NCBI GenBank assembly: GCA_036785375.1 | Contig: JAWMAR010000175.1 | Location: 2,914,001-2,978,000 of the forward strand | Length of the DNA: 64,000 bases | DNA from: Leucoraja ocellata | Taxonomy: Eukaryota | Reading direction: 5' to 3' | In this document: positions 283 to 64,000 of the stretch, in pieces | How the letters are laid out: every line of letters begins with the position of its first letter | How positions within the stretch are numbered: position 1 is the stretch's first letter | Notes under the pieces: model-generated | What the model was told of the DNA's origin: nothing | What the model saw: only the letters and a program-made list of their open reading frames with translations | Database searches by the model: none | Translations under genes and position numbers: made by a program

Positions 283-532
283 GATATATGAAAGGATTTT
301 TTTTGATATACTTGCCAGCATCTCTAAATATGGAGCAGGTTGTGTGTTTAATGTTATGGCCATTGTGGAGAGGATCTTGTGTGCTTTTTTTAATCAACTC
401 GAACCTGACCTGTTATCTTCAGGGTTACATGAGCAGATTCTCTGCTCCTCTGCACTTTGCAGCATTCTCAGATTTATAATGTTACCTGTCTGAAGAAGGT
501 TCGCAACCCAAAACGCCATCCGTCCATTCCCT

Positions 533-2615
533 TCAAGAGTCAAGAGTGTTTTATTGTCTTATGTCCCAGATAGAACAATTAAATTCTTGCTTGCTGCAGC
601 ACAACAGAATATGTAAATATAGTACATAGCGGGAGAAAAAAAAAGTTCAGTGTGTGTGTATACACATGCACACGTACTCAATAAACAAACAAAACAATTA
701 TGGTGCAATAATAATAATAGTCTATTGTAGTTCAGAGCTTATTTGTTGTTGTGTTTAATAGCCTGATGGCTGAAGGGAAGAAGCTGTTCCTGAGCCTGGA
801 CGTTACAGTTTTCAGGCTCCTGTACCTTCTTCCCGATGGCAATGGTGAAATGAGTGTGTGGCCAGGATGGTGTGGGTCTCTGATGATATTGGCTGAATTT
901 TTGAAGCGGCGACTTCGATAAATCCCTTCGACGGTGGGGAGGTCAGAGCCGGTGATGGACTGGGCAGTGGACACAACTTTTTGCAGTCTTTTCCGCTCCC
1001 GGACGTTCAAGTTGCCGAACCAGACCATGATTCAACCACTCAATATGCTCTCTACTGTGCACGTGTAGAGGTTCAAGAGAATCCTCTTTGACATACCGAA
1101 TCTCCGTAATCTTCTCAGGAAGTAGAGGCTCTGATGTGCTTTCTTTATAATTGCATCAGTGTGCTGGGCCCAGGAAATATCTTCGGGAATTTGCAACGCC
1201 CAGGAATTTTAAGTTTTTGACTCTCTCCACCATTGTCCCATTGATGTAAACAGGATTGTGGGTCCTCATCCTTCCTCTTCCAAAGTCCACAATCAATTCC
1301 TTGGTTTTGCTGGTGTTGAGAGCCAGGTTGTTGTGCTGACACTATTTGGTCAATCGGTCGATTTCACTTCTATACTATGTCTCATCACCATCTGTAATTC
1401 GTCCCACAACAGTGGCGCGTTGGCAAACTTGATTATGGAGTTTGCACTATGTCTGGCTACACAGTCATGAGTGTAGAGCAGGGGGCTGAGCACACAGCCA
1501 TGAGGTGCTCCTGTGCTAATTGTGACTGACTATGAAGCATTTCTGCCAATTTGAACCGACTGTGGTCTGTGGATGAGGAAGTCGAGGATCCAGTTGAAGA
1601 GGGATGCGCAAGTTCCGTGAGCTTGGTAACCAGCTTTTTTTTTCTTTTTTTTTTTTAAATCAAAAATATTTATTCAAATATTAAAATAGTATTTACAATA
1701 CAATAAAACAAAACACCACCATAATACAAGACGAACAAATATGCTAAGCAACTGCTAAACAACTATATTGCAATCCTTGTCCAGGATACATTCAACCCCC
1801 CTCGGTGCCCAGCAGTCGCGGAACTCCCTCAGGGTGCCCGTAGACAGGGCGTATTCCCTTTCTATACGCACCCGGGCATGGGCGTATCCCCGGAAAAGGG
1901 GCAGGCAGCTTGGAGGGATGATGGTATTAAACGCCGAGCTGTAGTGTATAAACAACAGCCTGGCGCAAATGTTTTTATTGTCCAAGTGGTCCAATGCGGA
2001 GTGGAGAGCCAGTGAGATCACGTCCTCCGTTGACCTGTTGTGGCAGTAGGCAAACTGTAGTGGGTCGAGGTTCTTGTCAAGGTAGGAGTTGATATGCACC
2101 ACAACCAACCTCTCAAAGCATTTCATCACCACAGACGTTAGTGCCACTGGTCGATAGTCATTGAGGCACGTCACCTTGCTCTTCTTGGGCACCGACCGGT
2201 ATTATTGATGGCCTTTTAAAGCAGGTGGGAACCTCAGACCTCAATAATGAGAGGTTGAAAATGTCCACAAAAACTCCAGCCAGTTGGTCTGCACAGGTTT
2301 TGAGAACTCGACCGGGTATACCATCAGGTCCTGGCGCTTTCCGAGGGTTCACCGCCCTGAAGGATCTTCTGAGGTCAGCGTCTGCCTGTGACTGTAATAC
2401 CATCGGGGTGAATGGGGGCTCGGGAAGGCACATCAGTATTCTCCCTATCAAAGCGTGCGTAGAACGCATTGAGCTCGTCAGCGAGTGATGCTTCGCTGTC
2501 GTTTGAGCTGCTTCCTGATTTTGCCTTGTAGGAGGTGATGGCTTTCAAGCCCTGCCACAGTTGCCGAACAGAGCAGGTCCCTTTTGCCCTTTTTGCTGGC
2601 CTTTTTCAAGGTCGT
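533..2615 (-). mobile_element. Rex1/Babar LINE, 5'-truncated and frameshifted, interrupted by a Tx1 insertion
   Basis: RT peptides [42 protein letters not shown] and PSGRRYRSL..SFFPSAIRLLN; (TCTTGAC)-type 3' tail at 533-547. Confidence 0.9.
1637..1905 (-). mobile_element. L1/Tx1-clade LINE 3' end with poly(A) tail, nested in Rex1
   Basis: Peptide [35 protein letters not shown], then AATAAA and an A-tail on the minus strand; CAGCTT duplicated at 1631-1636 and 1906-1911. Clade assignment is from recall. Confidence 0.7.
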
Positions 2616-3101
2616 ATTCACAGATGCTGCCTGACCTTCTGAGTGCTAAAAGCATTTTCAAAATGCCATTCCTCACTTTTTTGCAATAGATACCTTACTT
2701 AAACAAGATTCCTGATTCCTATCCCTGCACTTGATATTTTATTTGTTTTATTTTGCTGAAGAGTTTTATAACGCTGTGTCATTGACTCAACTGCCTGTGT
2801 ATGCATTTAGCTCAATATTAGCACGTTGGGGTGAAAGTGCCACAGGTTCCTGCTGAGTCCCCTTAACTTATGACTCCACAATCAATAGACCAAACTGATT
2901 TCTTTAGACGTGTAAGAATATACCAATGAGATGCTGCCTCAACGTTCAACTATTTGAGCATAACCAGTGGGTTGGTTGATCAATTTGCAAATAAACTTCG
3001 TTTATAACCATTATATTTGTAGAAATTTGTGGAAATAATTGAATGAATTGATCAAATGGATTGTTTTTTGTTTTGTTCAATGTTGTTTTTGCTTTTAACA
3101 G

Positions 3102-3247
3102 AAAATTTGTCGGTAGACTCTGCACTGTCAAACCCCAGTTCCCTGGCATCTCCAGGTCTGGGAATCGAAGGGCTGAGCCGCAGGAGAAAGAAACGCACCA
3201 GCATAGAGACCAATGTTCGAGTGGCCTTAGAAAAGAGTTTCCTGGAG
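3102..3247 (+). CDS. POU2F1: POU2F1/Oct-1 coding exon: POU linker and N-terminal homeodomain ([49 protein letters not shown])
   Basis: Polypyrimidine tract + AG at 3100-3101, donor GTCAGT at 3248; 146 bp (phase 1 to 0). Peptide matches the Oct-1 linker and [10 protein letters not shown] homeodomain start. Upstream exons lie outside the window. Confidence 0.96.
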
Positions 3248-3421
3248 GTCAGTCAATGGTCATGCTGAAAGCATTTTACAATCCCATTTGGGGGCTGTTC
3301 AGTTACTGGCTGCAGCAGTTTCTTGTCATTATACGCATATTTACCAATTTGAGTTTACTTTCTTAATTTGTAATCATTCGTTATTTTGTCGTTAGTCTGC
3401 TTGACAGAGACAAGTACAAGT

Positions 3422-3786
3422 AGTTTAGAAGGATGAGGGGGGACCTTATAGAAACGTATAAAATTATAAAAGGACTGGACAAGCTAGATGCAGGAAAAAT
3501 GTTCCCAATGTTGGGCGAGTCCAGAACCAGGGGCCACAGTCTTAGAATAAAGGGGAGGTCATTTAAGACTGAATTGAGAAAAAACGTTTTCACCCAGAGA
3601 GTTGTGAATTTGTGGAATTCCCTGCCACAGAGGGCAGTGGAGGCCAAGTCACTGAATGGATTTAAGAGAGAGTTAGATAGAGGTCTAGGGGATTGGGGAC
3701 GATCAGCCATGATCGCAATGAATGGCGGTGCTGGCTCGAAGGGCCGAATGGTCTCCTCCTGCACCTATTTTCTATGTATCTATGTT
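3422..3786 (+). mobile_element. CR1/HER1-type LINE 3' fragment
   Basis: RRMRGDLIETYKI...FTQRVVNLWNSLP; ends in a (TTCTATGT)-type tail. Confidence 0.9.
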
Positions 3787-3962
3787 AGTGAGCTTCACTC
3801 CTGCACCACTGTGGCTGTGGTTCTTGGCTTGCTACACCTTATCTGCAGGGAGAAGGTGGACAGAGCATAACTAGTGGATGTGTTGTAGGAGGTGAATCAT
3901 GGTTTGGGCTCTGTGTGAAATGCTGAATCAAGGCTTCTGCTGCTGCCGTGCCCCTTGCTTTC

Positions 3963-4838: not shown

Positions 4839-5844
4839 GGATACAAGCTCATATCAAGTTATTCATCGCATCTGGGCAGTCAGCTGTCTCAGGCCATTAC
4901 TGCTGCTGACAGATTGTTGAGTACAATCATAATTAGCATTATTATAAAAGGGTCCTGTCACAAAATGTCACCTATCAATGTTCTCCAGAGATGCTGCCTG
5001 ACCTGCTGAGTTACTCCAGCACTTTGTGTCTTAATTTGGTATAAGCCAGCATCTACAATACGGTATGCTTGCCTTCATTGGTCGGGGCCTTGAGTATAAT
5101 AGTCAGGAAGTCATGATATAGCTTTAAAGGACTTTGGTTAGGTCGCATTTGTAGTATTGTGTCCATCTCTACTCTGGTATCTTTTTTGGTATTAAACCAG
5201 AATCTGTGTTTCTTATACTACATTATGTTGCCTTTATTAAAATCTGCCGTGAATTCAATATGTAGACAATTTATATTTATTAACCTGTTTTTCTCTGTTA
5301 TGCTCAATTATTGCATTCTTATATACAAAATAGAGTGTTTATTAGTTTACATTCATAGCATGCAAAGATTTAATTGACAAACCAGGTGATTGCATATGAA
5401 AGCAGAATTAATATATCATTCTAAAGTTTCTGCTGACTTCAATCGGATGTTTATTATGCAAAGAAACCCCAAACTACTCCTTGAAGGTTATCAAATCAAA
5501 CAAAAGGGAAATATTGTAGTAGTGTGATTTCTGTTTACTTGAAGCAATGTCTCTCTGCAGGAGCATATCCTACTTACTTAAGCATGGAGAATTAGGGTCT
5601 GTAATCACCAGAGTTAGTACCACATAAAAGATGATTGCTTGAGGGATTTATAGTTGAAGATATCTAGATTTCAGAATTCCCAGCGTCTTGTAGGGATTAA
5701 AATTATGCTTATTGTTTGAAAGTACTTATCAGCAGCATAAAGTTTCAGAAGCATTTGTTTCTCTGCCCTGAACACAGTAAATAAATAGTATTTACTTGTT
5801 TTAATTAATTTTTTTGTATCACGTTCATTGAACGGTACAGCACA

Positions 5845-6290: not shown

Positions 6291-6983
6291 TAGTTAGTCT
6301 AAAGTCTCTTTTGTCTTGTATAATATTTAAATTATAATTTAAATCTCTTTTGCCGTTAGCCTATTTTGACCTGTCAACCAGGAACAATCTACAAACAGTT
6401 GCAATGATTGAAATTTCGACTGATTTCAAATTTATTTTCAAAATGGTTTCACATATTAAATTTGAAAAGAAAACAATGGTTTCAATGGGGCACACCACTT
6501 TAAATTCCCCACGTAGCAACTGTGTTTCAAGTGACAATATGTAAACGATTAGTGCCACTTTTGGAATATTGTAGAATTATAATTTAAAAAGATGAATGGG
6601 CCAGAAATCGCTACCATTTTAGTTCTGCACCAAACTGCTGTGATTTATCTCTAAGTGTCAGGAAATTTAACGCAACCTCAAAAATGCACAGATCCCTACC
6701 TTGAGCACTGGAGGAGATCAGTAGGTCAGGAAGCATCTGGGGAGGGAATGGACAGGCAACATTTCAGCTTGGACCATTCTTCAGACTGATAGTTGGGGGG
6801 AGAAGGCTGGAAGAGAAAGGTGGGGGTGGGACAAAGCCTGGCAAGTCTAACATATTGCTTATAGTTCACTGGGGATTTTCTGACTAGCATTGACCATTGA
6901 AGTAGTTATGTTAATGCATTTCATTGTCTCTGTACTGTACACTGACAATGACAATTAAATTGAATCTGAATCTGTTGGGACAA

Positions 6984-7570: not shown

Positions 7571-8031
7571 ACTGCCTGCAATATCTATACCTGTTTATAG
7601 AGAGGAAAAGTCTAGGAGGGAATAAGAAAAGTATTGATTTATTTAAATTTTTGAATTATAACTTATTTTAGGTAAATGTTTTCTCATGTCTATAAATAAT
7701 TCAACCTTTATAAATTTTTTAAGGATTGTTTTTTAACACTTAATATTTTCAGTGTCCGTTGGCAATAGGTGGCCTGCTTTTCGTGTGTTGACAGCACTAT
7801 GTTGGCCAAACCATTGTTGAGAATCACCAAGAAGGCTTCTGGCAGCAAATTGACGCGAGCAGGTTTAGAAAAGTAAGGGTGCACTCAAAAGTTCAGCAGC
7901 ATGCATGGATGAATCACCACGGCAGTAGGATGTGGCTCAGTAAAATAAATCTCTCGTCACCATGCGCTCTACCTAGATAAAGAAACATTGACACGTTGAC
8001 ATTTTCTGAAAAATTGTCTTTTTTGTTTCAG

Positions 8032-8211
8032 AACCAAAAGCCTACCTCGGAGGAGATCATGATGATTGCCGAACAACTGCAGATGGAGAAGGAGGTGATC
8101 AGAGTCTGGTTCTGTAACAGACGCCAGAAGGAGAAGCGGATAAATCCTCCCAGCAGTAACAGTGGCACTACCACAACTACCAAAACAATCTTTCACACCC
8201 CCACCTCCATG
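8032..8211 (+). CDS. POU2F1: POU2F1 coding exon: homeodomain helices 2-3 ([42 protein letters not shown]...PTSM)
   Basis: ttttgtttcAG acceptor, GTAGGA donor at 8212; 180 bp (phase 0/0); POU-homeodomain [11 protein letters not shown] motif. Confidence 0.97.
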
Positions 8212-8444
8212 GTAGGAGAAGATCCATTAAACACTATCCTAGTAAATCTATTGCAGTGTGCCATTTATATTTCTGCTGATCACTAAACCCAATGAGCAAA
8301 ATGTCCTTTATGCAGCTTGGTTCGAATGATGGGTACAAAGGTTTTGATGCGTAGAAAATTGAAATTTTATGCAAGTTTGTGAAACAATTAATGATGCACT
8401 CTGTTGTTGTGATGCAATTTAGTTTGATGCATGTTAGAAGTTTT

Positions 8445-8757
8445 CACTGGTGGGAGAATCTAGGACCAGAGATCATAGCCTCCGAATTAAAGGGTGCTCT
8501 TTTAGAAGGAGGCAAGGAGGAACTTCATTAGTGAAAGGGTAGTTAATCTGTGGAACCCATTACCACAGAGGGCTGTGGAGGCCAAGTCAGTGGATATTTT
8601 TAAGGTAGAGATAGACTAATTCTTGATTAGAACAGTGTCAAGGTTTATGGGGAGAAGGCAGGAAAATGAGATTAGGAGGCAGAGATCAGCCATGATTGAA
8701 TGGCGGAGTAGACTCGATGGGCCGAAAAGGTCAAATTCTACTCCTATACCTTGTGAA
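8445..8757 (+). mobile_element. CR1 3' fragment
   Basis: Similar to the other CR1 3' ends in the window. Confidence 0.75.
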
Positions 8758-10501
8758 CTGTGGAATTTAAAACAATGCATGAAATATGGAGCAAAATTTG
8801 CAAGTAGAAATTCTTAATGTGAATATTGTGCATATATTAACGTGACAGATTGTGGCTAAAATTCTGTGTAGATTGGACTGCTACCAAAGATAGTTTTAGT
8901 GTTGTCAAGCAGCCGTTTAGATAACTGGGATTCCAGTTGTGAATACGTTCTGATTGAAGGTGACTATTGTGTGTGTGTGTGTTAATGTTGGCAATGGTAA
9001 AATATGCATATATGCAGATAATTCTTCTGTTTTCCATCAAACAAGTTGGATACAAAGCAACTGATGGATCAGGCAACACAGTTTGTATTATGCAGACTGC
9101 ATTGGTCATAACATGATTTTGATCGGAACCTAGAAAACCACTTAAAAGCTATTTTGGAAATTGGTAAGCAGAAAAATGCAGTCTTTGGGGCGGGGGGGGG
9201 GGGATCTTTTTGATCACTTTTCAGATACATGCTACAGTGCTTGTTTATCATTTGCAAATTAAATCTTTATACCCAAAACATTTGACACAAATTGAAAATT
9301 AAAGGTTGGATCTCAGAGACAAAGCATTATCCCATTCTTGCTGATCCAAAAGCCTCTATTCTTTGCTAGGTCATTTAGCCATTGAGGTAATTGTGTTTAT
9401 TTTAGTACTGTTGCTGTCAGCAATAAGCCTCTTGTTTATTTGAGTGCAAGTGAATGCATGCAACCGGCCCTGGCTCTTTTGTATGTAGGCTCTTTTTTCA
9501 AAACTCAGTGAAGTAGTTAAAGATGATATGTCCCTACATCGATGCTTGCTGTCTAATTAGCTTGGGTATAATTCACGTTTTGTTTAAATAGATTTCAGTA
9601 GAATAGGATTTTAGCGGTTGCTTTCCTCTGCTTGACATCCCATAGATACATCTTGGCGATAGACAGATGTACCCATCATTCAGCCTGTATTGTAGGCATA
9701 AAGGAGTGGCAGATGCAGGATTAGAAAAAAAAGACACAAGTTGTTGGCGTAACAAAGCGGGTCTGGCAGCATCTCTGGGGAACATGAATAGGTGATGTTT
9801 TGGGTCATGATCTTTCTTCAGGCCATTCCAGACCTGAAACTTAATTTACCATGTTCTCCAGAGATGATGACTGACCTGCTGCGTTATTCCAGCACGATGT
9901 GTCTTTTTTTTTTTTAATGCAGCCCATAGTGCTGCAATTGGTCCAGAAGAGCCACGTCATGGTATTACAGATATTGGAAGTATTTACCCTAAAAGAGTAC
10001 AAAGTGCTGGAGCAACTCGGCAAGCCAGGTTGCATCTCTGGAGAACATGGATAGGATTCTGACTTGAGTCTGTAGAAGGGTCTCAACCAAAAAAAGCACC
10101 TATCCAGGTTCTCCAGAGATGCTGTCTGACTTGATGAATTACTCTAGCATTTTGTATATACCAGCATCTGCAGTTCCTTGTTTCTACATTTTGAAGGATT
10201 TACCTTTTATTTTATAAATGGTTAAACAAATCTTGTGTTGATCTGTAACTAGTTTGGCTGTGATTGATGTCTGTTTGTAGGGCTGGTATTGAGCTGGACA
10301 TGTACAAGAACCTATGGAGGCACACAAACATATAAAGATGCATGCACATGTACACGCAATAAACTGGGTGGGAAAGTCATTGATTGTCACTGTCACTGGC
10401 GTAGAGGTGTGCATTCTGTGCCATCTACACACATGTACTTCTTGTGCTCATCTATTATGCCTAATTGTTACCACAATATTCAAGGGTTACTTGGACAACG
10501 G

Positions 10502-11890
10502 CAGTGCCCTTCATAATGTTTGGGACAAAGACCCAGCATTTATTTATTTGCCTCTGTACTTCACTATTTGAGATTTGTAATAGAATCACATGTGGTTAAA
10601 GTGCACATTGTCAGATTTTAATAAGGGCCATGTTTATACATTTTTGGTTTCACCATGTAGAAATAGCAGTGTTTATACATAGTCCCCCATTTCAGGGCAC
10701 CATAATGTTTGGGACACAGCAATGTCATGTAAATGAAAGTAGTCATGTTTAGTATTTTGTTGCATATCCTTTGCATACAATGACTGCTTGAAGTCTGCGA
10801 TTCATGGACATCACCAGTTGCTGGGTGTCTTCTCTGGTGATGCTCTGCCAGGCCTGGTGATGTATTGCAGCCATATTTAGCTTATGCTTGTTTTGGGGGC
10901 TAGTCCCCTTCAGTTTTCTCTTCAGCATATAAAAGGCATGCTCAATTGGGTTCAGATCGGGTGATTGACTTGGCCACTCAAGAATTGACCATTTTTTAGC
11001 TTTGAAAAACCCTTTGTTGCTTTAGCAGTATGTTTGGGATCATTGTCTTGCTGTAGAATGAACCGCCGGCCAATGAGTTTTGAGGTATTTGTTTGACCGA
11101 GCAGATAGGATGTGTCTATACACTTCAGAATTCATTATGCTACTACCATCAGCAGTTATATCATCAATGATGATAAGTGAGTCAGTACCTTCAGCAGCCA
11201 TACATGCCCAGGCCATAACACCCCCATCACCATGTTTCACAGATGAGGTGGTTTGCTTTGGATCTTGGGCAGTTCCTTCTCTCCTCTATACTTCGCTCTT
11301 GCCTTCATTCTGATATAAGTTAATCTTCGTCTCATCTGTCCACAAGCCCTTTTTTCCAGAACTGTGTTGCTCTTTTAAGTACTTCTTGGCAAACTGTAAC
11401 CTGGCCATCCTATTTTTGCAGCTAACCAGTGGTTGCATCTTGCAGTGTAGCCTCTGTATTTCTGTTCATGAAGTCTCTGCAGACAGTGGTCATTGGCAAA
11501 TCCACACCCGACTCCTGAAGAGTGTTTCTGATCTGTCGGACAGGTGTTTGGGGATTTTTCTTTATTATAGAGAGAATTCTGCTAGTCCCTTTGCGATTAG
11601 TAAGCTCACCAGTGCTCTCTTTCTTTTTAATGATGTTCCAAACAGTTGATTTTGGTAAGCCTAAGGTTTGGCTGATGTCTCCAACAGTTTTATTCTTGTT
11701 TCTTGGTCTCATAATGGCTTCTTGACTTTCATTGACACAACTTTGGTCCTCGTGTTGATAAACAGCAATAAAGTTTCCAAAGGTGATGGAAAGACTGGAG
11801 AAAGACTAGGAGCTGAGAGCTCTCTTATACCTGCACTAATGAGGCAATTAAACACAACTGAGCAATTACATATGCATGTGAAGCCATGGA
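10502..11890 (-). mobile_element. Tc1/mariner transposon (IR/DR type), degenerate, one TIR lost
   Basis: Left end CAGTGCCCTTCATAATGTTTGGGACA with inner repeat CATAATGTTTGGGACA at ~10702; transposase remnants ISQTLGLPKSTVWNIIKK (HTH) and KHGDGGVMAWACMAAEG. Confidence 0.88.
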
Positions 11891-12191
11891 TAGGAAAGCT
11901 TTGGTGGGAGGTGGTGAAAATAACACATTAGGAGCAATTATTTAATATTATTGCTCTCTTTAACCAATGCATACTTTGTGAAATTTAGGGGTTGCCCTTC
12001 AAATTTAAGTGAACATCTATCACCTGGTGGTGATGAAGATCAAATCTGTTTGGCTAATAAAATAATCTTCCAGAAGCGATTACTGTTTTATTGCTGATGC
12101 TATTACCGAGTTATTATCTGATTTTGCTTCTACTCAAAAGATTAATATTATTGTATGTTGCTGAATGTGTGGATGACTTTGTTTTAAACAG

Positions 12192-12300
12192 GTGGCTAGC
12201 ACTAGTAACCTTGTGACAAGCAGTACACCGACTACTCTGGCTGTAAATGCAATGCAGATGCCTGTATCCACTGCTGGTGTGACCAGCTTCAGCATTTCAG
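12192..12300 (+). CDS. POU2F1: POU2F1 coding exon (VASTSNLVTSSTPTTLAVNAMQMPVSTAGVTSFSIS)
   Basis: AG at 12190-12191, GTGAGA donor at 12301; 109 bp (phase 0 to 1); resembles mammalian VATTPSLVTSSAATTL... exon. Confidence 0.9.
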
Positions 12301-12449
12301 GTGAGAAAGTGCCGCTAATCAATTTGTGGTTATGTGATCCCGTTTGTTCTAACATAGTTTTGAATCTTAATCCTTTTTAACAGTAGTATTCAAAATCTGC
12401 GTTCTAAGTACTAATTGGTGCCGTGCTATTAGCGGATTTTTCTTTAAAA

Positions 12450-26199: not shown

Positions 26200-26502
26200 T
26201 TTAGTCTAGTTTTAAGATACAGGGCCGAAACAGTCCCTTCGGCCCACCAAGTCCAAACTGGCCAGCGATCCCCACACATTAACACTATCTTACACCCACG
26301 AGGGACAATTTACACATACACCAAGCCAATTAACCTACAAACCTGTACGTCTTTGGAGTGTGGGAATGAAAACGAAGATCTCGGAGAAAACCCATGCGGT
26401 CACAGGGAGAACGTACAAACTGCGTACAGAGAGCACCCGTAGTCAGGACTGAACCGGGTCTCTGGCGCTGTAAGGCAGCAACTCTATCGCTCCGCCACCG
26501 TG
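26200..26502 (-). mobile_element. HE1-like V-SINE
   Basis: Same family as 17122-17410. Confidence 0.82.
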
Positions 26503-26671
26503 GAAGTGTGAAATCTTTGTCAAAAGTGAATGATAAAGCTGATGATACCCATCTGGAAATGTAGAAACAAAGAATTGCAAAGATAGACGCAAACTGCTGG
26601 AGTAACTCAACATTCAGGCAGCATCTCTGGAGAAGAAGGATGGGTGACTTTCTGGTTGGATCTCTTCTTTA

Positions 26672-31000: not shown

Positions 31001-31103
31001 TTTAAATAAATTTACTCCCAAGAAAAATAGCAAATATTTTTTTTAAATTGTTGATGGAAAAAATTAGACAATATCTAATATTTCAGTTCTAAGTGCAGAA
31101 TGA

Positions 31104-45200: not shown

Positions 45201-45225
45201 TCCATTGCAGCTTGATTTTTTTTTT

Positions 45226-45370: not shown

Positions 45371-46087
45371 ACTTAAGCAGTGGGGACTTGAATGTTTTTG
45401 GTGGTTAATCATACAAGAACGACTAAACCACATTATTACACTAACAGCTCGTACCTATTTTGAGCTGCGGTGCATGTGCTGCAGGCAACATGTAGATGAT
45501 TTGTTACATTTGTCGTGAAAGTGCATAATAATCGCCATTCACAATGAACACCAAAGCACGTGCCCAACTCTTGACATTTCTGCATTTCTCAAGGACGGAA
45601 ACAAGCACAGGTGGATGTTGTGTGTAAGCAGAAGTCATTGGAAGAGGTGAGCAGGTTAAGGATACAATTCAACACAGCATGTTGACTGTAAAGTCCTCTA
45701 AAGTATGTTTGCAGTGTTCTGACTGTTTGCCAGTGCAAGCAGTTAAATGCAACTGGTTGATACCAATGCTGGGCATAGGTAGAGCATGCCACTGTTAATT
45801 CACTTTGTCTTTGCCGCCTCAGTCCTAGTGGCAACATTGGACAGCATTCAGTCTGCCTGCTAGTTTCTGCTAGATTTAGTGGACTGACATCCTTTGAGAT
45901 CATAGGCCACTTTCTCTGCTTCTTGAAGTAGAATATCCACTTTGTTTGCCATCAAACAGGATGGAAATACTCAAGGATACATCTTCACTTTTCTGTAGTT
46001 GAACTATTTCCATATTGTCCATGGTCAACACTTTTGACTTACTATTTGGAGGCATTGGACTTTTTGGAACAACAGCCCATTATATTC

Positions 46088-46395
46088 CGTAATAGCCCAT
46101 AACAGCACCTCATATTCCGCTTGGGGAGTCTTCATCCTGGGGGCATGAACATCGAATTCTCCCAATTTTGTTAGTCCTTGCTATCTCCTCCCCTTCCTCA
46201 GTCCCCCTGCTGTCTCCTCCCATCCCCCAGCCTTCGGGCTCCTCCTTTTTCCTTTCTTGTCCCCGCCCCCCCCCCCCCCCCCCCCCCCCCACCCCCGATC
46301 AGTCTGAAGAAGGGTTTCGGCCCGAAACGTTGCCTATTTCCTTCGCTCCATAGGTGCTGCTGCACCCGCTGAGTTTCTCCAGCTTTTTTGTGTAC
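46088..46395 (+). mobile_element. 5'-truncated Penelope element (GIY-YIG C-terminus + pLTR) with 15-bp TSD
   Basis: QHLIFRLGSLHPGGMNIEFSQFC*; CAGCCCATTATATTC at 46073-46087 and 46396-46410. Confidence 0.88.
46304..46331 (+). ncRNA. Minimal hammerhead ribozyme core in a Penelope pLTR
   Basis: CTGAAGA-A-GGGT-ttcg-GCCC-GAAA-CG-TT. Confidence 0.68.
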
Positions 46396-47559
46396 CAGCC
46401 CATTATATTCAATGTCTCTTTATTATAGTTCCCCTGAAAACCTTAAACTTCTAAATGAGTTGATCTAAGCAAGTTGAGCTAACCACCTCTTAAACATGTT
46501 AAGATTGAATAATTCCTGAAGTTTACATAATATACCAATTAATTGCAAAAAATGGGCTAATACAGAGATTCTCCAACTGCATGTTAAAAGATTATAAACA
46601 CTTCTCTCTTGCCTTTACCATTTTTAATACAGAAAGGTTTACAGGCATTGCAGAAAACAGCTTAAATATAAAAAACATGCAGGGCTGAACAGTGGTTATT
46701 TTTTAAAGAAAATTATCAAAATCAGTTCTGTATATTGAAATAAGTTAAGACAATTCTGGCATACTCACTAGTTTGTCATGGATGGTTTGTTATATTCTGA
46801 TTTATTTCCGCCCCCCCCCCAATTTGTGTTTTTTCAGTTTGTTTAGGAATCAGTTTTTTATAAAGAACTGTTTGGTCAGAAGATTGTGCTTAAATGATCA
46901 TGATCCTGATTGTTGCAGCTATTAATATTAATCCAAAAGCATCCAGAACACAATAACAAATTCTTGTTACTGGCTTGAAGGGAAGTAGCAACAGCTATAG
47001 TTACCATCTACGATTGACTTGCTTGAGTACAACATATTTAAAAGCAAAATCTGATTGAATGGATTTTGAACCTTAGTGACTCTATTAATCCTGGAATCTT
47101 ACAACATAGAAAGAAATAAAGGGTTCATCTTGCGCATATACCAGACTGCCAGAAGACTAAACTAGTCCCACACATTTATTCCTTCTTGTTGTAAATAAAA
47201 CCAGTTTCCATCATTTTTCCAGGCATTGCTCTCCAGATCATAGCAACTTTTTAATTAATAGACGTGTAGGCAAACAAGCCATTGTACTTTTTTTCCTCCT
47301 GTATATATGCATTGCTTGTATTGAATACGTAGACAACAACTGTACAAAATTTGCCCAAAGATCCAAGAATGGCTGAAAATACTGAATACAATTTGCTGAA
47401 AATATTGGTTTTTAAGAATATTTATTAAGAATGACTGTTATATTAACATTTTAATCGTCAATCCGGTGAGAATTAAAATGGACTCCGTTTTATCTTAAGT
47501 GGAAACATACTGACAAGCATTGAGGTAACTTCTGCTCAGCACCTAGTAATGGCATACCA

Positions 47560-48030
47560 GTTCACCAGACTGATTCCTGGGATGTCAGGACTGTCTTATG
47601 AAGAAAGACTGGATAGACTTGGTTTATACTCTCTAGAATTTAGGAGATTGAGAGGGGATTTTATAGAAACTTACAAAATTCTTAAGGGGTTGGACAGGCT
47701 AGATGCAGGAAGATTGTTCCCGATGTTGGGGAAGTCCAGGACAAGGGGTCACAGCTTAAGGATAAGGGGGAAATCCTTTAAAACCGAGATGAGAAGAACT
47801 TTTTTCACACAGAAAGTGGTGAATCTCTGGAACTCTGCCACAGAGGGTAGTTGAGGCCAGTTCATTGGCTATATTTAAGAGGGAGTTAGATGTGGCTAAG
47901 GGGATCAGGGGGTATGGAGAGAAGGCAGGTACGGGATACTGAGTTGGATGATCAGCCATGATCATATTGAATGGCGGTGCAGGCTCGAAGGGCTGAATGG
48001 CCTACTCCTGCACCTAATTTCTATGTTTCT
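47560..48030 (+). mobile_element. Young CR1 3' fragment
   Basis: FTRLIPGMSGLSYEERLDRLGLYSLEFRRLRGDFIETYKIL. Confidence 0.9.
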
Positions 48031-49159
48031 AATAGCTTCACCGCTCAATGCCAGTTCCCTTTGTTTGTAACAAGCAGGGTGAAACAGGCAATAGTTTTTA
48101 CAAAAATAGGTATTTGTAGCATTACTGCAATTCGTACAACACTACAGAGATCAGCAATATCAGCCGCTCATTAGAAAGATGTATAAAAGAGAAAAGATTA
48201 CTGCTTTGTAATGGTATTATTTACATGGTTCTTTATCTACATAATTGATTTTTAAAATATACTGTTCTGACTAGATATAGGTGATTTCTCATTTAAAGAA
48301 AATAATGCCCCATTGACAATGCTGTGCATTCCATTTCCATTTTGAAGTTACCTTTTAAATACAGGTACCTATTTTCACTTGGATAAATGATAAATATTTT
48401 CAGCTCCAGCTGAGGATTTCGTTTTGATTTATGCAAACGGGTAACAAAGATTGACTTCTAAACTTGAATGAGCTTTAGCCTACATTTCTCATTAACTGTA
48501 GATTATATCAAGCTAGTTATATTTTTCGAGGCTTGTAAACTCAGAGATTGGCACCATTACAATGGGACTCTTCCATGTTGTACTATAATAATGCTAATTT
48601 AACTGAGTTTTTAATATTTGCAAGTAAATATTGCAGGGGATCATTTGTAATTTGGCATTACTTTATGTTGATGAAATACGAGTTCATCCTAGAAGGTTGT
48701 CCACTGTTGCTTGTCGTGGGATTACGTTATCCACTCGAGGATGTCAGCGACGTGGAGGTGGGGGCATAGTCGGTAATGGCTGCATTTGCAGTTGGTCATA
48801 TGGGTCTTGTGTTGCTTGACTCAGTCCCTGCAAAATAATTCCACCGAAATCGTTAGCAAAATGTCTGCATCACAAGGAAGTATTTTTCTATTCTACACTT
48901 TTCCCTGCAGGTATAATTTGTATATGCCTTTCTGGTAAAAAACATGTATTCCAGGTGTTGTTAAGATATATTAATGTGCTGATTATCTGTTGTGTAGTTC
49001 CTGCGTACAGTTTGCCTCCTAAATTAACAGAATTTAACCACCCTTCATCGAGGTGGAAGATGAGAGGTCAAAGATATTCCCCAAGAGCTCCCAACCAACC
49101 AGGCATGCAAGAAAATGGCAACCTTTGCTGGGTTTTGTCTGTATGATATATTCAACAAC

Positions 49160-49814: not shown

Positions 49815-51420
49815 AAATGGCAGATGGAATCTAATTCGAACAAGTGTGAGGTGGGGCACTTTGGGAGGTTGAATGAAAGGGGAAACTGTACAGTTAATGG
49901 TAAAACCCTAAACAGCATTGATGTACAGAGAGATCTAAGTCAAAGATAGACAGAACCAGCATCTGCAGTTCCTTCCTACGCTTGTGGTCTAAGTACATAG
50001 CTTGATGAAAGTGGTGAAGAAAACGTAACGTGTGCTTGCTTTCATAGGTCAGGGCATTGAATATATGAGGCAGGAATCTTGCTGCAGCTTTATAGGTCTT
50101 TGGTTACTCTACATTTGGAGAATTGGGCAGTTCAGGTCTCCCCATACAGGAAGGATGTGGAGGCTTTGGACAGGGTGCAGAAGAGGTTCACCAGAATGCT
50201 GCCTAGATTAGAGGATAGTAGCTCTAGAGAGAGGTTGGATGAACATGGATTGTTTGCCATGGAGTGTCATAGGCTGAGGGAAGAACTGATAGAAGTAGAT
50301 ATAGTTGTGAGTGGCATTGATAGGCGAGACAGTCAGAATCTTTTTGCCAGGATGGAAATCAAAGATCCTATAGCGAGGAAGATAGATCACTCGACGAAAC
50401 AGACGTGGTACGGTCATGGGCAAATTCATGGGTAATTTTCGGCCCCATTTCCGTAACCGGCTTCCGTCTCCGCACCAAAGATCCCGTAGCGGAGCAAAGA
50501 TACTAGTACAGAGACGGAAGCCGGTTACGGAAACATCCTCGTAAAAATCAAAGACCTTTGGTAAAAAACTTCTCCTCATTTTCTTTGTGCCTCTCTGCCT
50601 CACAATAAAAAGCAAAAAGATGCCTATGTTCCTTCCACAGCGTGTGGAGAGTCTGGCCCAGATCAGCACGGCTGGGACGCCAGGGTAAAGTTGCGGAGAG
50701 GTTTACAATGTATTTTTATGTAATGTTGTCCCTTGTCTGGGTCTTGTGTCCGAAATAAAGTTTACCATTATATATAAAAATCTGGAGAAATATATATGTG
50801 TGTGTTATATGATTATATACATCTATATCACATTCATATATGTGTCTTTCCTACACAATCTAATCAGTTGTATGGTCGCTGAATAAAACACAGCCCGTGA
50901 GCCATTTAAAAATATATTTTTTTAAAACATTAAAATTAATAACATTTTAAAAAAAACATTAAAAAATGAAAATTAACAGAATTACAATTTATTAACACAA
51001 ACTGTTCCCCCGCAACGTTGATTGCACTGCGAGAGGGATCTACAAAGTCAGGTCGGGTTACTGTAATGGCCCATTTTCCGCTCCGTTGCGTACTACACAT
51101 CAGCCCATTGGATTTAGCAGGAGTGGAATATCTTGCTCGTTATAGGATCTTTGATGGAAATGTCAAGCCTTAGCTTTAAAATAAGAGGGTAAACTTTAAA
51201 TAAAGTGTGCGGAACAAGTTTTTTTGACATGGAGTGGTGAGTGCCTGGGATGTGCTGCCAGGGGTGGTGGTGGAGGCAGATATGTTAGTGGCATTTGAGG
51301 CTTTTACACAGGCAGGCAGATATGGATCATGTGCAGCAGAGGAGATTAGTTAAACTTGGCATCGTAATTGGCATGGACATTGTTGGACCTGTTCCTTTAT
51401 TGTACTGTTCTATTTTCTAA
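49815..51420 (+). mobile_element. Old CR1 fragment interrupted by a DNA transposon
   Basis: LQLYRSLV..RKDVEALDRVQKRFTRMLP; sequence resumes after 51161. Confidence 0.75.
50360..51153. mobile_element. Non-autonomous DNA transposon (CA...TG, ~33-bp imperfect TIRs, 8-bp TSD; P- or hAT-type)
   Basis: CAAAGATCCTATAGCGAGGAAGATAGATCACTC ... GAGTGGAATATCTTGCTCGTTATAGGATCTTTG; ATGGAAAT at 50352-50359 and 51154-51161. Confidence 0.85.
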
Positions 51421-51767: not shown

Positions 51768-52410
51768 ACATAGAAATTAGGTGCAGGAGTAGGCCACTCG
51801 GCCCTTCGAGCCTGCACCGCCATTCAATATGATCATGGCTGATCATCCAACTCAGTATCCCGTACCTGCCTTCTCTCCATACCCCCTGATCCCCTTAGCC
51901 ACAAGGGCCACATCTAACTCCCTCTTAAATATAGCCAATGAACTGGCCTCAACTACCTTCTGTGGCAGAGAGTTCCAGAGATTCACCACTCTGTGTGAAA
52001 AAAGTTCTTCTCATCTCGGTTTTAAAGGATTTCCCCCTTATCCTTAAGCTGTGACCCCTTGTCCTGGACTTCCCCAACATCGGGAGCAATCTTCCTGCAT
52101 CTAGCCTGTCCAACCCCTTAAGAATTTTGTAAGTTTCTATAAGATCCCCTCTCAATCTCCTAAATTCTAGAGAGTATAAACCAAGTCGATCCAGTCTTTC
52201 TTCATAAGACAGTCCTGACATCCCAGGAATCAGTCTGGTGAACCGTCTCTGCACTCCCTCTAAGGCAATAATGTCCTTCCTCAGATTTGGAGACCAAAAC
52301 TGTACGCAATACTCCAGGTGTGGTCTCACCAAGACCCTGTACAACTGCAGTAGAACCTCCCTGCTCCTATACTCAAATCCTTTTGCAATGAAAGCTAACA
52401 TACCATTCGC
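51768..52410 (-). mobile_element. Young CR1 3' fragment
   Basis: ANGMLAFIAKGFEYRSREVLLQLYRVLVRPHLEYCVQFWSP...; near-identical to 47560-48030. Confidence 0.92.
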
Positions 52411-53278: not shown

Positions 53279-53459
53279 ACACAAAAAAGCTGGAGAAACT
53301 CAGCGGGTGCAGCAGCATCTATGGAGCGAAGGAAATAGGCAACGTTTCGGCACGAAACGTTGCCTATTTCCTTCGCTCCATAGATGCTGCTGCACCCGCT
53401 GAGTTTCTCCAGCTTTTTTGTGTAACCTTCGATTCTCCAGCATCTGCAGTTCCCTCTTA
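53279..53459. mobile_element. Palindromic Penelope pLTR insertion (72-bp perfect arms, 3-nt loop, 35-nt tail, 17-bp TSD)
   Basis: Arms at 53278-53349 and 53353-53424; AACAAGAAGCATAAGCT at 53262-53278 and 53460-53476. Confidence 0.9.
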
Positions 53460-54157: not shown

Positions 54158-55735
54158 AAGAATCCTACAATTTGGCCTAAAAACTTCAAACAAAATTGAA
54201 TGCAGACTGGGTCCAAGGAAGGTTAGTGTATTTATCCAACATTTTCATCAGAGTTTCCAAATAATACACTTCACCTCGATAGGTTTCTTTGCATTAGGGC
54301 TAATCTATTGAATAAATTATGAAACTGTTCCACCTACTTCAAATCCACTTCAAAACCATGGTCACTCCAGCCTTATTACTGTGATGAGCAAAGCATACAA
54401 TCCCAGGGCACCTCAAAGTAATCATTGACGTGTTCAATACAAACTAACAGTCAGCTTCCCCAAGTAGCAAGTGTCTCTAAACTTGGAAACCATTTTGTGA
54501 TCTCCAGAGCCCGCCCTCGTTGAAGGCAAGTGTCAGTGATCAAATGTACCTTTTGTTTCTCTGTACCAGCACTCAATTTGGCGGTCCTGAAGGAAAGTAT
54601 TGGAGGATCAGATCTCAAACACATTTCCAAGCTTGTGGTGTCCCATACAGGTAGTGTTTTTCCACCAACGCCTGTATGGTTACCCCATGCACGACTTTAG
54701 GCAGACACCTCAAAGTATTGGAGGTAACATCGCTGCTATTGTAGTCAAGTCCACTGTCAGGATGTGTGAACCAATGTGTGGCATTGAGGCTGTAATACCT
54801 AAGGCACATTCCCTGAACCGGACTCCCAAACGAGGCACAGTGAGTTCCAACATAGCAAGCGATTACCAAGAGGACAGAAGTGATCCAAAGATGTTCTGAA
54901 AGCCTTCTTGAAAACCTGTGACATTCTCACCCGCTAATGGCAATCCCTGGCCAACAATTAGATTGGCGGAGGAGTGCACCACCTCACCTGCTCCATCCAG
55001 TACCTCCTTGTCTGCCGATCCCAAACTCATCTCACCAGCCATCCCATACCTGGAGTGGAAGCAAGTCTTCCTTCAAGCAGAGGGGCTGCGGAACAAGATA
55101 ACACGTCCTCACACTAACTAGAGAGTAGTCCTGTCATCCCATCTACCTCAAACTATCTCTAATCAGACTTTGTCGGACTTTAACTTGTAATAAGTGTTAT
55201 ATCCTTCATTGTGGATGACTTTTGTAATCACTATCTCTGTACAAGTGACAATGATAGACAAAACTAATTTCCACATTTCCTGCTTGTTTCTGGAGAAGGC
55301 CGCAGAAGTTCCCTATGTTGAATAGTCTTGTCTAACCCACAGAAGAGTCATGTGGCAGGAAGAGATTCTGTATTAGAATACATACATACCACACAGCTAT
55401 TGGTCAAATTGCAAGCACACAGTTGGGGTTGGGTGGTAAATCCATCTCCTGCTGTTGGAGTCTGTTACCACTCAGAACAAGACCAGTAATTCCAAGTTGA
55501 TCGCGGTTTCACAGCACACGACTCTCCTGCACTGCATGCTCAGTACATCGTTTGGGATCTACCTGGCCCAAACTCTTAATTTTCCCCTCCCTTCAACCAA
55601 TATTAACGACCAAAGCACTCTTTGCTTCCAAAAAGACCTGGAGTTTAAGCCATACTTACAGAATAGGTGTCACTGGAGGCAGCAGCAGCATTCATCCTTT
55701 CATTCTGAAAGAGAGCAAAACACGAAGGTGATGAT

Positions 55736-57124
55736 TGAAGAAAAACACAAAAAGCTGGAGTAACTCAGCGGGACAGGCAGCATCTCCGGAGAGATGGAAT
55801 GGGTGACGTTTAAGGTCGAGACCCTTCTTCAGACTGGTTAGGGAAAAGTGAAACGAGAAATATTGACAATGATGTAGAGAGATAAAGAACAATGAATGAA
55901 AGATATTCAAAAAAGTAACGAATGTAAAGGAAACTGGCCATTGTTAGTTGTTTGTTGGGTGATAACAAGAAGCTGGTGCGACTTGGGTGGGGGAGGGATG
56001 GAGAGAGGGAATGCTGGGGCTACCTGAAGTGAGATAAATCAATATTCATACCACTGGGCTGTAAGCTGCCCAAGCGAAATATGAGATGCGGTTCCTCCAA
56101 TTTGTGTTTAGCCTCACTCTAACAATGGAGGAGACTGAGGACAGAAAGGTCTGTGTAGGAATGGGAAGGAGAATTAAAGTGTCTGGCAACTGGGAGATCA
56201 GGTTGGTTCAGGCGGGCTGAGCAAAGGTGTGCAGCGAAACGATCGCCCAGTCTACGTTTGGTCTCGCCGATGTACAAGAGTCCACATCTTGAACAACGGA
56301 TACAGTAGATGAGGTTGGAGGAGATGCAAGTGAACCTCTGCCTAACCTGAAAGGACTGTCGGGGTCCCTGGACAGAGTCGAGGGAGGAGGTGGTAGTGAC
56401 AGGTGTTGCATCTTCTGCTGTTGCAGGGGAAGGTACCTGGGGAGGGGGTCGTATGGGTGGGAAGGGATGAGTTAACCAGGGAGTTGCGGAGGGAACGGTC
56501 TCTGTGGAAGGTGGAAAGGGGTGGAGATGGGAAAATGTGGCCTGTGGTGAGATCCCGTTGGAGGTGGCAGAGAGTTTGTAGGATCATGTGTTGTATGCGA
56601 TGGCTAATGGGGTAACTACTAGGGGACTCTGTCTCTGTTCCAACTAGGGGGAGAGTGAGCAAGGGCGGAACTGCGGGGTACTGAGGAGACACGAGTGAGG
56701 GCCTCATCTATGATGGGAGAGGGGAATGAGGACATCTCGGATGTCCTAGTATGGAACATCTTATCTTGAGCGCAGATGCGGCGTAGACGGAGGAATTGGG
56801 AGTTGGGGATATAATCTTTACAGGAAGCAGGGCGGGAAGAAGTGTAGTTGAGATAGTTGTGGGACTCAGTGGGTTTGTAATAGACATCAGTCAATAGTCT
56901 GTTTCTTGTGATGGAGACTGAGATCAAGAAAGGGGAGGGAGGTGTCGGAGATGGTCCAAGTAAATTTGAGCACAGAGGATGAAGATTGGTGGTGAACTTG
57001 ATGAAGTCCATGAGTTCTGCCTGGGTGCAGGAGGTATCACCGATGCAGTCATCAATGTAACGGAGATAGAGTTCGGGGATAGGGTCAGTGTACACCTGGA
57101 ACAGGGATTGTTCAACGTACCCAC
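55736..57124 (-). mobile_element. Penelope-like retroelement (RT + Cys-rich linker + GIY-YIG endonuclease + 3' pLTR), 5'-truncated and degenerate
   Basis: GYVEQSLF..LYLRYIDDC; VYYKPTESHNYLNYTS..IPNSQFLRLRRIC; GTFPCNSRRCNTC; LIYCIRCSRCGLLYIGETKRRLGDRFAAH; HLIFRLGSLQPSGMNI; pLTR with hammerhead-like core at 55805-55832. Confidence 0.93.
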
Positions 57125-57519
57125 TGAAGCCACACTGTTATTTGTATCAGCAAATTTAGACAGGCCTGTGATCAAAATGTTTCTCAGGTGAACAGCTCCC
57201 AGCCTGAACCTTTTCAATGGGTTAGCTCCAGCTCATAGACATCTCCAGGTCCCAGCACTCGGACCTGCATGGTTGTAATTGCTTGTCAACTTATGCCACG
57301 GGTAAAGCAGCTGAAGGTGGTCACACGGCATGTTTCAAATCAACTCTGCAGGGGCTGCCAGCCATCATCTGCAAGTGTACGGTTGTGGCACAGCTAGTGG
57401 GGAAGTCAGGACACCTCGTGCCAGCGTTTACTGCTGGGGAGAGCAGCTTCATATTCCTGTCCAGTGATGTCTCTAGGCCCAGCATGTGAACATGATGAAG
57501 GCACGCCAGCATGTCAACA

Positions 57520-62519: not shown

Positions 62520-62648
62520 GTGGAAAGAAGGAACTGCAGATTTCTGGTTTAAAAAAAAGGGCACACAATGCTGAGTAACTCGGCAAGTCAGGCAGCATCT
62601 CAGGGGACCTGAATAGGTGATGTTTCGGGTCAGGACCCTTCATCAATA
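62520..62648 (-). mobile_element. Penelope pLTR copy
   Basis: Minus strand TTGATGAAGGGTCCTGACCCGAAACATC, followed by the pLTR body and tail. Confidence 0.75.
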
Positions 62649-62891
62649 TGATGTAGGGACCTGAATAGCTATTCCTAGTGTCTGGCAGCATTTCAATCTG
62701 TATACCACTTTGGAAAGATGTCCAATAACTTACCCTCAGTTTAAGGTAGAGAGCAGTGATTATAATGCCATAGATAAAGAGAATTCCATCCAGATGTAAC
62801 AAAGTTTCGGGTCATTCAGGTCCATAGTGCCAGCATCTGTTAAAGTTGGAAACAAAAAGTCTGGTCAATGACCCATCCAAACAATATCTAA

Positions 62892-63336
62892 AGGGGCCTG
62901 TCCCACTGCCGTGACCTAATTGGCGAGTTTCGAAGAGTTTGCCCTCGACTCATCCTCTCAGCAATGTCGACACGAGGTCCTAGGAGGTCTTTGTGACTCT
63001 CCTTCATGCTCGAGAGTGGTCTCCGCGTACTCGAGGCCTCAGCTGGGTCCGGGCGTTTTTCTCAACATGCTGACAAAATGCCCGCGAGTAAAAAAAGGTC
63101 GCCATGGAAAAAAATCGAATTTTTTTTTTACTCGTAGGTTTAGTTGAAGTCGGTCGTAGGAGGTCGGCATGTTAGTCGTAGATAATCGAGGGAGGTTAAA
63201 GGTAGTCGAAGGTGGTTGTAGATAGTCTTCATCATAGTCGAAGGGAGGTTGAAGGAGGTCTTCAACATGGCACTTTTCAAACTCTCTTAAACTGTTCTAA
63301 ACTCGCCAATTAGTTTGCCGCAGTGGGACAGCCCCT
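62892..63336. mobile_element. PIF/Harbinger-type MITE
   Basis: TAA|AGGGGCCTGTCCCACTGC..CTAATTGGCGAGTTT ... AAACTCGCCAATTAG..GCAGTGGGACAGCCCCT|TAA; 3-bp TAA TSD. Confidence 0.85.
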
Positions 63337-63911
63337 TAACGATTCCATTGTGTACCATCAGTAGTTTTCAACAAATAACCATGGTTGTATGTCATTATAT
63401 TTCATTTCAATATTGAAAGCTAATTGGAGAATGTGATGATTTCATTGATAATTCTTGGTCTGTTCCTATCGATAATGTGTACACTCACACTTCGTAACAT
63501 CTGATATTGCCCGAATCACTTGTTGTGCTATCTGGCGCACTCATTTACGCTATTGTCATGAAGCTGTTATTCCAATGCTCACCGTTTCCGTTCTTACAAA
63601 ACTAACCGTATCTAAAATAATTTTTGCCACTCAATATTTGTCACATTGTTCTCTTCTTATTCCCAGTTCACTAATATTTTAAATGTCATTGTTGTTTTAA
63701 AAATCCTGTCATGGCCCTGCCCCCGGGCTATGTCAGTAATCTCCCGAACCCTCGCATTCTTCAAGTTCTGTCTGCAATTACCATTTCAGCTATCAATTAA
63801 CATAACTGAATATCCAGATGTTCTGATCATTGCTGTCATTAGGAGACTGTTGTACACAAATGTCATCATTACCATCAGTGACTGCAGTCCAAGGAGTACA
63901 TATGTACATGC

Positions 63912-63996
63912 AGACAAAAGTGCTGGAGAAACTCAGTGGGTGCAGCAGCATCTATGATGCTGCTGCACCCGCTGAGTTTCTCCAGCACTTTTGTCT
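63912..63996. mobile_element. Palindromic Penelope pLTR derivative (41-bp arms, 1 mismatch, 3-nt loop)
   Basis: 63912-63952 and 63956-63996 are reverse complements; the element runs off the window edge. Confidence 0.82.
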
Positions 63997-64000
63997 ACCT

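Follow-up and report, generated by a model that had tools for sequence, protein, structure and literature searches.

A short repeat dispersed over a 64,000-nucleotide stretch of the Leucoraja ocellata genome (contig JAWMAR010000175.1, positions 2,914,001 to 2,978,000; hereafter the window) is, judging from homology, the 3' end of Penelope-like elements (PLEs) of the Neptune type, a term that covers here both the Neptune and the Nematis clades. On balance, we favor the explanation that the repeat is the 3'-terminal, 92–125-nucleotide (nt) head of such an element, that it carries a mostly broken minimal hammerhead ribozyme and that its solo and paired copies likely arose as short by-products when the element reverse-transcribed its own uncleaved RNA by target priming. 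Hammerheads in the pseudo-long terminal repeats (pLTRs) of PLEs, their dispersal as truncated singles and their inverted pairs are already published, and the pile-up of starts at one base is the only unusual point.

The Repeat and Its Source Element

An nhmmer profile with a length of 123 was built from window copies, matches were accepted at E ≤ 0.01 and the reversed window served as the control. The profile matched the window 23 times and the reversed window 0 times. All 17 positions named in an earlier reading of this DNA, which was made from the sequence only and proposed a recurrent repeat, were among the matched ones. Two further pieces, a minus-strand arm at 42885–42938 and a piece at about 49937–49980, were recognized by the tail motif or by eye. 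The number of insertion units in the window is 18–20, and the 23 profile matches span 3.1% of its length. The unit measures about 92–103 nt plus an optional tail of about 30 nt and is thus shorter than the 130–170 bp claimed before. Head positions are numbered from +1, the A of AGTCTGAAGA, which equals 55835 in the copy linked to an open reading frame (ORF).

The copies fall into at least three sequence types. Type A includes the copies at 55835 and 31234, which are 91% alike, and type B those at 46301, 53344, and 53358 (94%); the identity between A and B is 73%. Type C is the larger and older set, whose members are 77–85% identical to the copy at 27162.

Two copies are situated behind remnants of ORFs with a GIY-YIG domain, which bears out the proposal that the repeat is the 3' pLTR of a Penelope element. 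The first of them, a subfamily A head at 55736–55835 (−), is 184 nt behind a 5'-truncated and frameshifted ORF at 56020–57134 (−). This ORF contains the YIDD motif of reverse transcriptase (RT), a C-X4-C-X2-C zinc linker and the GIY-YIG endonuclease (EN). The 3' untranslated region (UTR) between its stop and the head (55836–56019) is pyrimidine-rich and terminates in CCAG. The head has no tail, its hammerhead motif at 55805–55833 has G12 replaced by T, and cleavage is predicted between 55805 and 55804. The second copy, at 46301–46393 (+), is preceded, at a distance of about 130 nt, by the final ~22 codons of a related ORF. It belongs to a 5'-truncated subfamily B insertion (46088–46393) that consists of these codons, the UTR and a head with an intact minimal hammerhead, and that is flanked by a 17-bp target site duplication (TSD) with one mismatch (46071–46087 and 46394–46410).

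The ORF at 56020–57134 was 53% identical to P0005, a Hypanus gene model (E = 2e-56), and its GIY-YIG domain was matched by Pfam at E = 2.8e-4, which is below the cut-off. RT and, at the C-terminus, GIY-YIG are thus joined in one ORF, as in EN+ PLEs, here in a broken remnant. The zinc linker between RT and EN is present in the window frame, and a regular expression for it was positive in 43 of 44 GIY-bearing homologs, in one of those via EN cysteines. A CX2-5CxxC linker is a mark of the Neptune and Nematis clades (PMC8557442). The closest named protein relatives of the element are those of Leucoraja, Mobula, and Hypanus. A tblastn comparison of 60 homologous proteins with the head gave no match. 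In addition, a donor-like AG|GT lies over the ORF stop at 56023 (−), and P0005 runs on from the element's last codon into other sequence. The P0005 model suggests that host transcripts can splice out of the end of the element's ORF.

The two ORF-linked copies represent different subfamilies, and the commonest type, C, has no ORF-linked copy in the window. Only 2 of the 23 matches are linked to an ORF, in line with the earlier view that ORF-less copies form the majority. The sequence-only reading had also placed the parent element in the same window. This holds for the copy at 31234, by its likeness to 55835, and for those at 53344 and 53358, which are 94% identical to 46301; it does not hold for most solo copies, which resemble 27162 and are closest to neither ORF-linked copy.

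Identity of the unit as a short interspersed nuclear element (SINE) was rejected, as no Rfam match of the tRNA, 5S or 7SL type was found on it at E ≤ 5; Pol III boxes were not scanned separately. Searches elsewhere did not recover the unit. A pattern scan of metagenome contigs gave 0 matches, a 16-mer scan of viral contigs gave 14 matches, none with the unit, and a protein scan of metagenome contigs gave 3 weak loci without a head. The best match in a profile scan of the 17 retrieved metagenome and viral loci had an E-value of 0.76, and the unit was absent from all of them.

The Hammerhead Motif and Its Decay

The head begins with CUGAAGA, an unpaired extra A, a 4-bp helix II that opens with G-C, GAAA and a palindromic ACGU followed by C or U. 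As a DNA motif, AGT-CTGAAGA-A-GGGT-n4-RCCC-GAAA-CGTY-RCC, it agrees with the consensus claimed before. Its features are those of the published metazoan PLE minimal hammerhead, which has CUGANGA, GAAA-UH, an extra base at 9/10.1, G10.1-C11.1 and a palindromic 15.2-16.2. Thus, the minimal, dimer-type architecture that had been recognized is present. Helix I consists of 2 contiguous bp, fewer than the 4–5 bp expected of a PLE minimal hammerhead; 2 bp have been published for Drosophila virilis.

The full descriptor was intact in 2 (27162 and 46301) and broken in 11 of the 13 motif-spanning copies, and it was found 0 times in 100 shuffled windows. The two intact copies differ from each other at six positions of the 32-nt motif, and all six differences are tolerated, whereas only 0.2–0.4% of random six-change variants keep the descriptor (p 0.002–0.004). 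This argues that the source elements kept the ribozyme motif. Among the copies as a whole, 121 of 141 core positions (86%) and 553 of 668 positions of the downstream flank (83%) were conserved (Fisher p = 0.46), so that the core is no better kept than the flank in these mostly old copies. Moreover, G12, which lies in a CpG, is A in 6 of 13 copies. The consensus CpG columns are 65% conserved, and the decay of the core is of the CpG type.

Helix II had been described as varying while staying paired. The GGGT/GCCC form, however, is a one-sided change from U-A to a U-G wobble in subfamily B. Among 20 rows, none of the pairs of helix I or helix II changes on both sides; between subfamilies only wobbles were found, and the covariation score of helix II was reached by 248 of 500 shuffles. 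Two pairs that RNAalifold reported as two-sided lie in CpG columns or over an alignment shift and were discounted as covariation. The copies are mostly old, and neither the conservation nor the covariation results are therefore a test of young copies. Covariance models had been suggested as a check; the Rfam hammerhead models gave no match at E ≤ 5.

The predicted minima of the monomer and of the cofold depart from the hammerhead shape. The predicted folds prefer an alternative hairpin (+12 to +35), formed by pairing of helix II's 5' arm with +32 to +35. Such sequestering of helix II would fit a ribozyme that requires a partner or a protein. Selection likely maintained the ribozyme in the active source elements, where a dimer partner or a protein would assist cleavage, but among the dispersed copies it merely rides along and decays. 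Another complement in the unit is an invariant 8-bp one between the AGATGCTG box and the tail (+53 to +118; e.g., at 31110–31234 and 53344–53457), which encloses a small hairpin. The AGATGCTG-tail structure is a candidate for protein binding and for the start of RT, with no covariation seen.

Structure of the Insertions

Significant TSDs (p ~ 0.01) of 12, 17, and 19 bp were found in 3 of 17 units, and two of them enclose whole head-to-head pairs. Five tight head-to-head pairs are present, and in all four that are fully readable the tail is on exactly one arm. The pair at 53279–53457 belongs to subfamily B, is centered on the loop of helix II, has the tail on its plus-strand arm only and is flanked by the 19-bp TSD with one mismatch. 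The pair at 9989–10192 has a 12-bp TSD with one mismatch; its plus-strand arm begins at +1 (10067) and bears the tail, and its minus-strand arm begins at +33. The minus-strand arm of the pair at 9702–9910 starts at +2 and has the tail, and its plus-strand arm starts at +15. The pair at 42885–43010 has a minus-strand arm made of the tail and a short stub, and a plus-strand arm that starts at +2 and has an internal deletion. The fifth pair (63913–64000), of subfamily B with its junction at +48/+50, is cut off by the end of the window. Two of the pairs are centered on small natural palindromes of the unit, at 53344–53358 and 63954–63956.

The 3' ends of the units are of two classes, those with and those without the ~30-nt tail. 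Inverted pLTRs, palindromic junctions, solo pLTRs, TSDs and one-armed tails are described traits of PLEs (PMC3846280; PMC8557442). Of the traits of EN+ PLEs, inverted pLTRs, an optional tail of 30–40 nt at one end and TSDs were all found in the window. No tandem array of the unit was found in the window.

The pairs at 53279–53423 and 63913–63996 form long perfect hairpins, which are possible sources of small RNAs or of false microRNA (miRNA) annotation. Sub-threshold Rfam matches of miRNA and plastid type at 53297–53405 and 63912–63996 were rejected, as they are these inverted pairs.

The 5' Edge, Read Depth and RNA

Most copies that reach the beginning of the head also stop there. Eight of the 14 copies reaching +6 end within +1 to +6, where 3% would be expected from the rate of truncation within the unit (p = 2e-9). 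Only 1 of 23 matches starts near +32, at the predicted cleavage site, and the joints and loose ends listed from the reads, described below, cluster at +1. Cleavage-generated 5' ends were thus rejected. The base at +1 is located 3 nt ahead of the hammerhead core. In 6 of the 6 copies that retain the upstream pyrimidines, it is the central A of YYANWYY, the initiator consensus, and this motif occurs at 1.2% of positions. A match resembling a downstream promoter element at +29 to +33 was discarded, as it overlaps hammerhead-constrained bases and fails at +28.

Four of 24 public runs were compared with 55600–57200 at 80% likeness; the listing shows 15 of the 875 joints and 24 of the 4790 rows of loose ends. 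In all four runs, the depth of the head was 10–17 times that of the best ORF bin, 58–122 times that of the median ORF bin and 26–92 times that of the adjacent UTR, ratios that are not copy numbers. Nine of the 15 listed joints had one end at 55831–55836, with a mode of 55835 (four times). None of the listed joints fell on 55833, the exon start under an AG acceptor, or on 55804, the first base past the predicted cleavage. The listed loose ends concentrate at 55834–55836. Those at 55834–55835 have an AT-rich consensus with an agreement of 0.33–0.34 in run X1, resembling random flanks.

Run X22 consists of poly(A) RNA of a related organism, of which about 6% of reads were used. In this run, 49% of the head reads and 67% of the ORF reads (56032–57111) were of one strand, which may be sense or antisense. 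The strand-balanced head reads fit passive inclusion in host transcripts. No site with many molecule ends was found in X22, a fragmented poly(A) library that would hide small or circular RNAs.

Origin of the Solo and Paired Copies

The favored explanation draws on the protein of an Anolis PLE. In vitro, this protein nicks and extends both strands, and its cDNA starts from two sites, which are downstream of the hammerhead and delimit the tail (PMC11167929). It copies uncleaved RNA and has no need of ribozyme cleavage, and the ribozyme needs the protein; on a template of 5' pLTR and ORF, run-off products were obtained (PMC11167929). By analogy across clades, both-strand priming and two start sites would account for the pairs and for the two 3' ends. 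The skate protein would nick both target strands and, downstream of the hammerhead, would begin cDNA at either of two positions, giving two 3' ends, and priming of both strands would give head-to-head pairs. Most cDNAs would halt at +1 because this is the start of the transcript, the protein having begun on the 5' and not on the 3' copy of the head. This last step is the least sure, and even within the model we give it somewhat less than an even chance. A more specific version, which we put forward only tentatively, places the start of the transcript at an initiator located 3 nt ahead of the hammerhead core and has priming often take place at the 5' copy of the start signal. The run-off cDNA, which extends from +1 to +92 or +125, would then be inserted either singly or, when twin-primed, as a head-to-head pair, and hammerhead relics of the order of 10^5–10^6 would have been seeded in ray or skate genomes. 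If so, the genome itself would give the transcript start of a Neptune element, together with its two RT start sites, at single-base resolution, and the 2-bp helix I would be explained.

Several observations weigh against by-products of reverse transcription that end at a transcript start. No significant TSD accompanies 14 of the 17 units. Across subfamilies, conservation is higher in the head than in the UTR or the ORF, and the depth ratios are thereby inflated. The profile itself starts at +1, extension upstream was assigned by hand for 6 copies, and UTRs of unfamiliar subfamilies would imitate an edge. In addition, loose ends in X22, X1, and X23 are most frequent at 55836, and the sequence upstream of this base is pyrimidine-rich; these ends likely belong to other subfamilies that bear their own UTR. 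YYANWYY is automatic in any YCAG|TCT acceptor, and the hammerhead of D. virilis follows an intron acceptor ~120 nt past the start site (PMC4209133). Moreover, the window contains neither a full-length element, on which the starts of transcript and ORF could be placed, nor an ORF-linked source of subfamily C.

Some of these points would be expected if the solo heads arose by ordinary early 5' truncation of cDNA begun at the 3' copy, the +1 edge being mostly a homology boundary between subfamilies with unrelated UTRs. The UTRs of the copies at 55835, 46301, 27162, and 6787 scarcely align, the loose end at 55836 has its pyrimidine-rich consensus, and strong 5' truncation is typical of PLEs (PMC8557442). 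However, 3 of the 8 edge copies adjoin an inverted partner, which indicates that the edge is physical. Seven opposite-strand joints among those listed also end at 55831–55836, with no listed letters between, and the loose ends at 55834–55835 have, in X1, a consensus like that of random flanks. We consider early truncation unlikely. Still less probable in our opinion is that the edge is an intron-exon boundary, with the UTR as a spliceosomal intron running from a donor-like AG|GTAG over the ORF stop (56023) to a polypyrimidine tract and CAG before the core, and with solo heads made from spliced RNA or a splicing intermediate. A precedent is D. virilis, where helix I has an intron acceptor at its 5' end (PMC4209133). 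In 4 copies, a pyrimidine tract (77–92% over the last 60 nt) is combined with CAG, the 10 nt upstream of 32009 match the ORF end of the 55835 element, and the continuation of P0005 beyond the element's last codon is what a splice there would presumably give. The edges, on the other hand, include the AG (mode 55835) and do not start at 55833, the solo copies share no common first exon upstream, and no skip from the ORF end to the head was found among the 15 of 875 joints listed for the RNA run or the contigs.

The sequence-only reading had regarded the repeat as a distinct non-autonomous, retrozyme-like family. In its full form, this is a SINE- or retrozyme-like lineage of solo or short UTR-head copies that are transcribed and remobilized in trans by the Neptune protein. 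The predominance of ORF-less copies (21 of 23 matches), the head depth ratios, two head-to-tail joints among those listed and the commonest subfamily being without an ORF-linked copy are consistent with such a lineage. Moreover, rotifer pLTR sequences suffice for integration in trans (PMC3846280), and non-autonomous PLEs are found in Chlamydomonas (PMC8557442). The window, however, contains no tandem array, the solo A and B copies are of the same sequence type as the ORF-linked ones (91–94% identical), and the starts are not at the cleavage site. In addition, 11 of 13 motifs are broken, and the head reads of X22 are strand-balanced with no pile-up of ends, within the limits of that library. 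Two outcomes that the sequence-only reading had itself named as refuting, no covariation in helix II and a core conserved no better than the flank, were obtained on these mostly old copies. A separate family was thus not upheld, and we regard it as about as improbable as early truncation. Promoter-bearing truncated copies mobilized in trans would yield the same products as run-off in cis.

Remaining Copies and Setting of the Window

Besides the ORF-linked copies and the pairs, two heads retain pyrimidine-rich sequence upstream. The subfamily C head at 27162–27263 (+) has an intact minimal hammerhead, ~80 nt of such sequence and no ORF, and the divergent head at 6708–6787 (−) has an intact core and a broken helix II. 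Solo heads with a tail were found at 31109–31234 (−; subfamily A, 91% to 55835, G12 replaced by A), 4944–5061 (+; start of the core lost), 25304–25426 (−; from +1, C3 replaced by T), and 62528–62646 (−; C3 replaced by T). A decayed 5' half of the head is at 488–534 (+) and a short decayed fragment at 2618–2657 (+). The 3' part with a tail at 20323–20403 (−) is opposed, over 180 nt of another repeat, by a 3' part without a tail at 20585–20625 (+). Three further copies are associated with fragments of long interspersed nuclear elements (LINEs). A decayed head with a tail remnant (26555–26672, −) adjoins such a fragment, and a head whose core is internally deleted (31992–32086, +) sits inside one. 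The smallest insertion seen, recognized by eye (49937–49980, +), also lies inside a LINE fragment and consists of a tail with an 11-nt inverted head stub upstream.

The plus strand of the window carries exons of a homeodomain gene (Pfam Homeodomain) at 7981–8286, 17830–18409, and 27732–28110, presumably a POU-type, POU2F1-like gene. Its introns contain the head copies located from 8300 to 27700. Fragments of Tc1-type transposases are present on the minus strand at 11422–11805 and 21160–21748, the latter with Pfam matches to HTH_Tnp_Tc3_2 and DDE_3. The 3' region of another LINE-like RT, unrelated to the Penelope head, was found at 716–1193 and 16039–16513 (82–85% identical) and at 1755–2544. 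Two young LINE copies at 47560–48031 and 51768–52243 are inverted, 99% complementary and 4 kb apart. Finally, a gap of 128 N is located beside a long purine-rich, low-complexity tract at ~14900–15550.

Comparison with Known Systems

Minimal type I hammerheads of metazoan PLEs were described by Cervera and de la Pena (2014) in pLTRs, mostly as dispersed single motifs and as opposite-strand pairs, and the dispersed singles were regarded as "probably related to truncated PLEs" (PMC4209133). They were reported from Xena, Poseidon, and Neptune of fish, from the coelacanth (~4,000) and from Xenopus (~9,000); no cartilaginous fish is named as a host in the part of that paper covered here (PMC4209133). 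Compared with these motifs, the helix II of 4 bp and helix I of 2 bp found here are shorter than in Schistosoma mansoni, while D. virilis also has 2 bp. The density of 18–20 units per 64 kb, about 300 per Mb if the window is typical, would be far above the published counts, but these take intact motifs only. As a hammerhead-bearing Penelope end, the repeat is thus known biology in one more lineage. For annotation, about 3% of the window resembles a SINE or, in the inverted pairs, a miRNA hairpin, and is a Penelope relic.

Animal retrozymes share with the unit a type I hammerhead, the absence of an ORF, kinship to PLE pLTRs and dispersed monomers. They are defined by head-to-tail tandem units of 150–450 bp, in which the hammerheads are intact (in the original definition, canonical), and by circular RNA (PMC7229834; bioRxiv 10.64898/2026.07.22.740005), and one chondrichthyan is retrozyme-positive with a mean unit of 363 bp (bioRxiv 10.64898/2026.07.22.740005). 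In contrast, the units of this study are ~100–125 nt long, solo or head-to-head and mostly broken. With no array in the window, the unit falls outside the definition of a retrozyme. In the literature searched, which was mostly judged by listed entries and included few subscription journals and neither Repbase nor Dfam, this family in cartilaginous fish is not reported, nor is a 5' edge pile-up at a hammerhead.

Similar to the EN+ PLEs of the Neptune clade (PMC8557442), the element combines RT, linker, C-terminal GIY-YIG, 5' truncation, inverted pLTRs and a tail at one end; here, only broken 3' remnants are present. In the Anolis Poseidon element PAc (Frangieh et al., 2024; PMC11167929), the hammerhead likewise lies upstream of two RT start sites, which form the borders of an optional tail; its uncleaved RNA is copied, and no RNA ends are found at the cleavage site. 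PAc differs in belonging to another clade and in an ORF that starts at helix II, and the part of that report covered here describes no clustering of 5' edges at the hammerhead. For the Penelope transposition cycle, the very many short copies, which have two discrete 3' ends, a tail on one arm only and a sharply defined 5' edge, represent a large natural data set. Such a data set could test in vivo the internal initiation and both-strand priming that the Anolis protein shows in vitro, as well as whether the hammerhead acts before or after copying.

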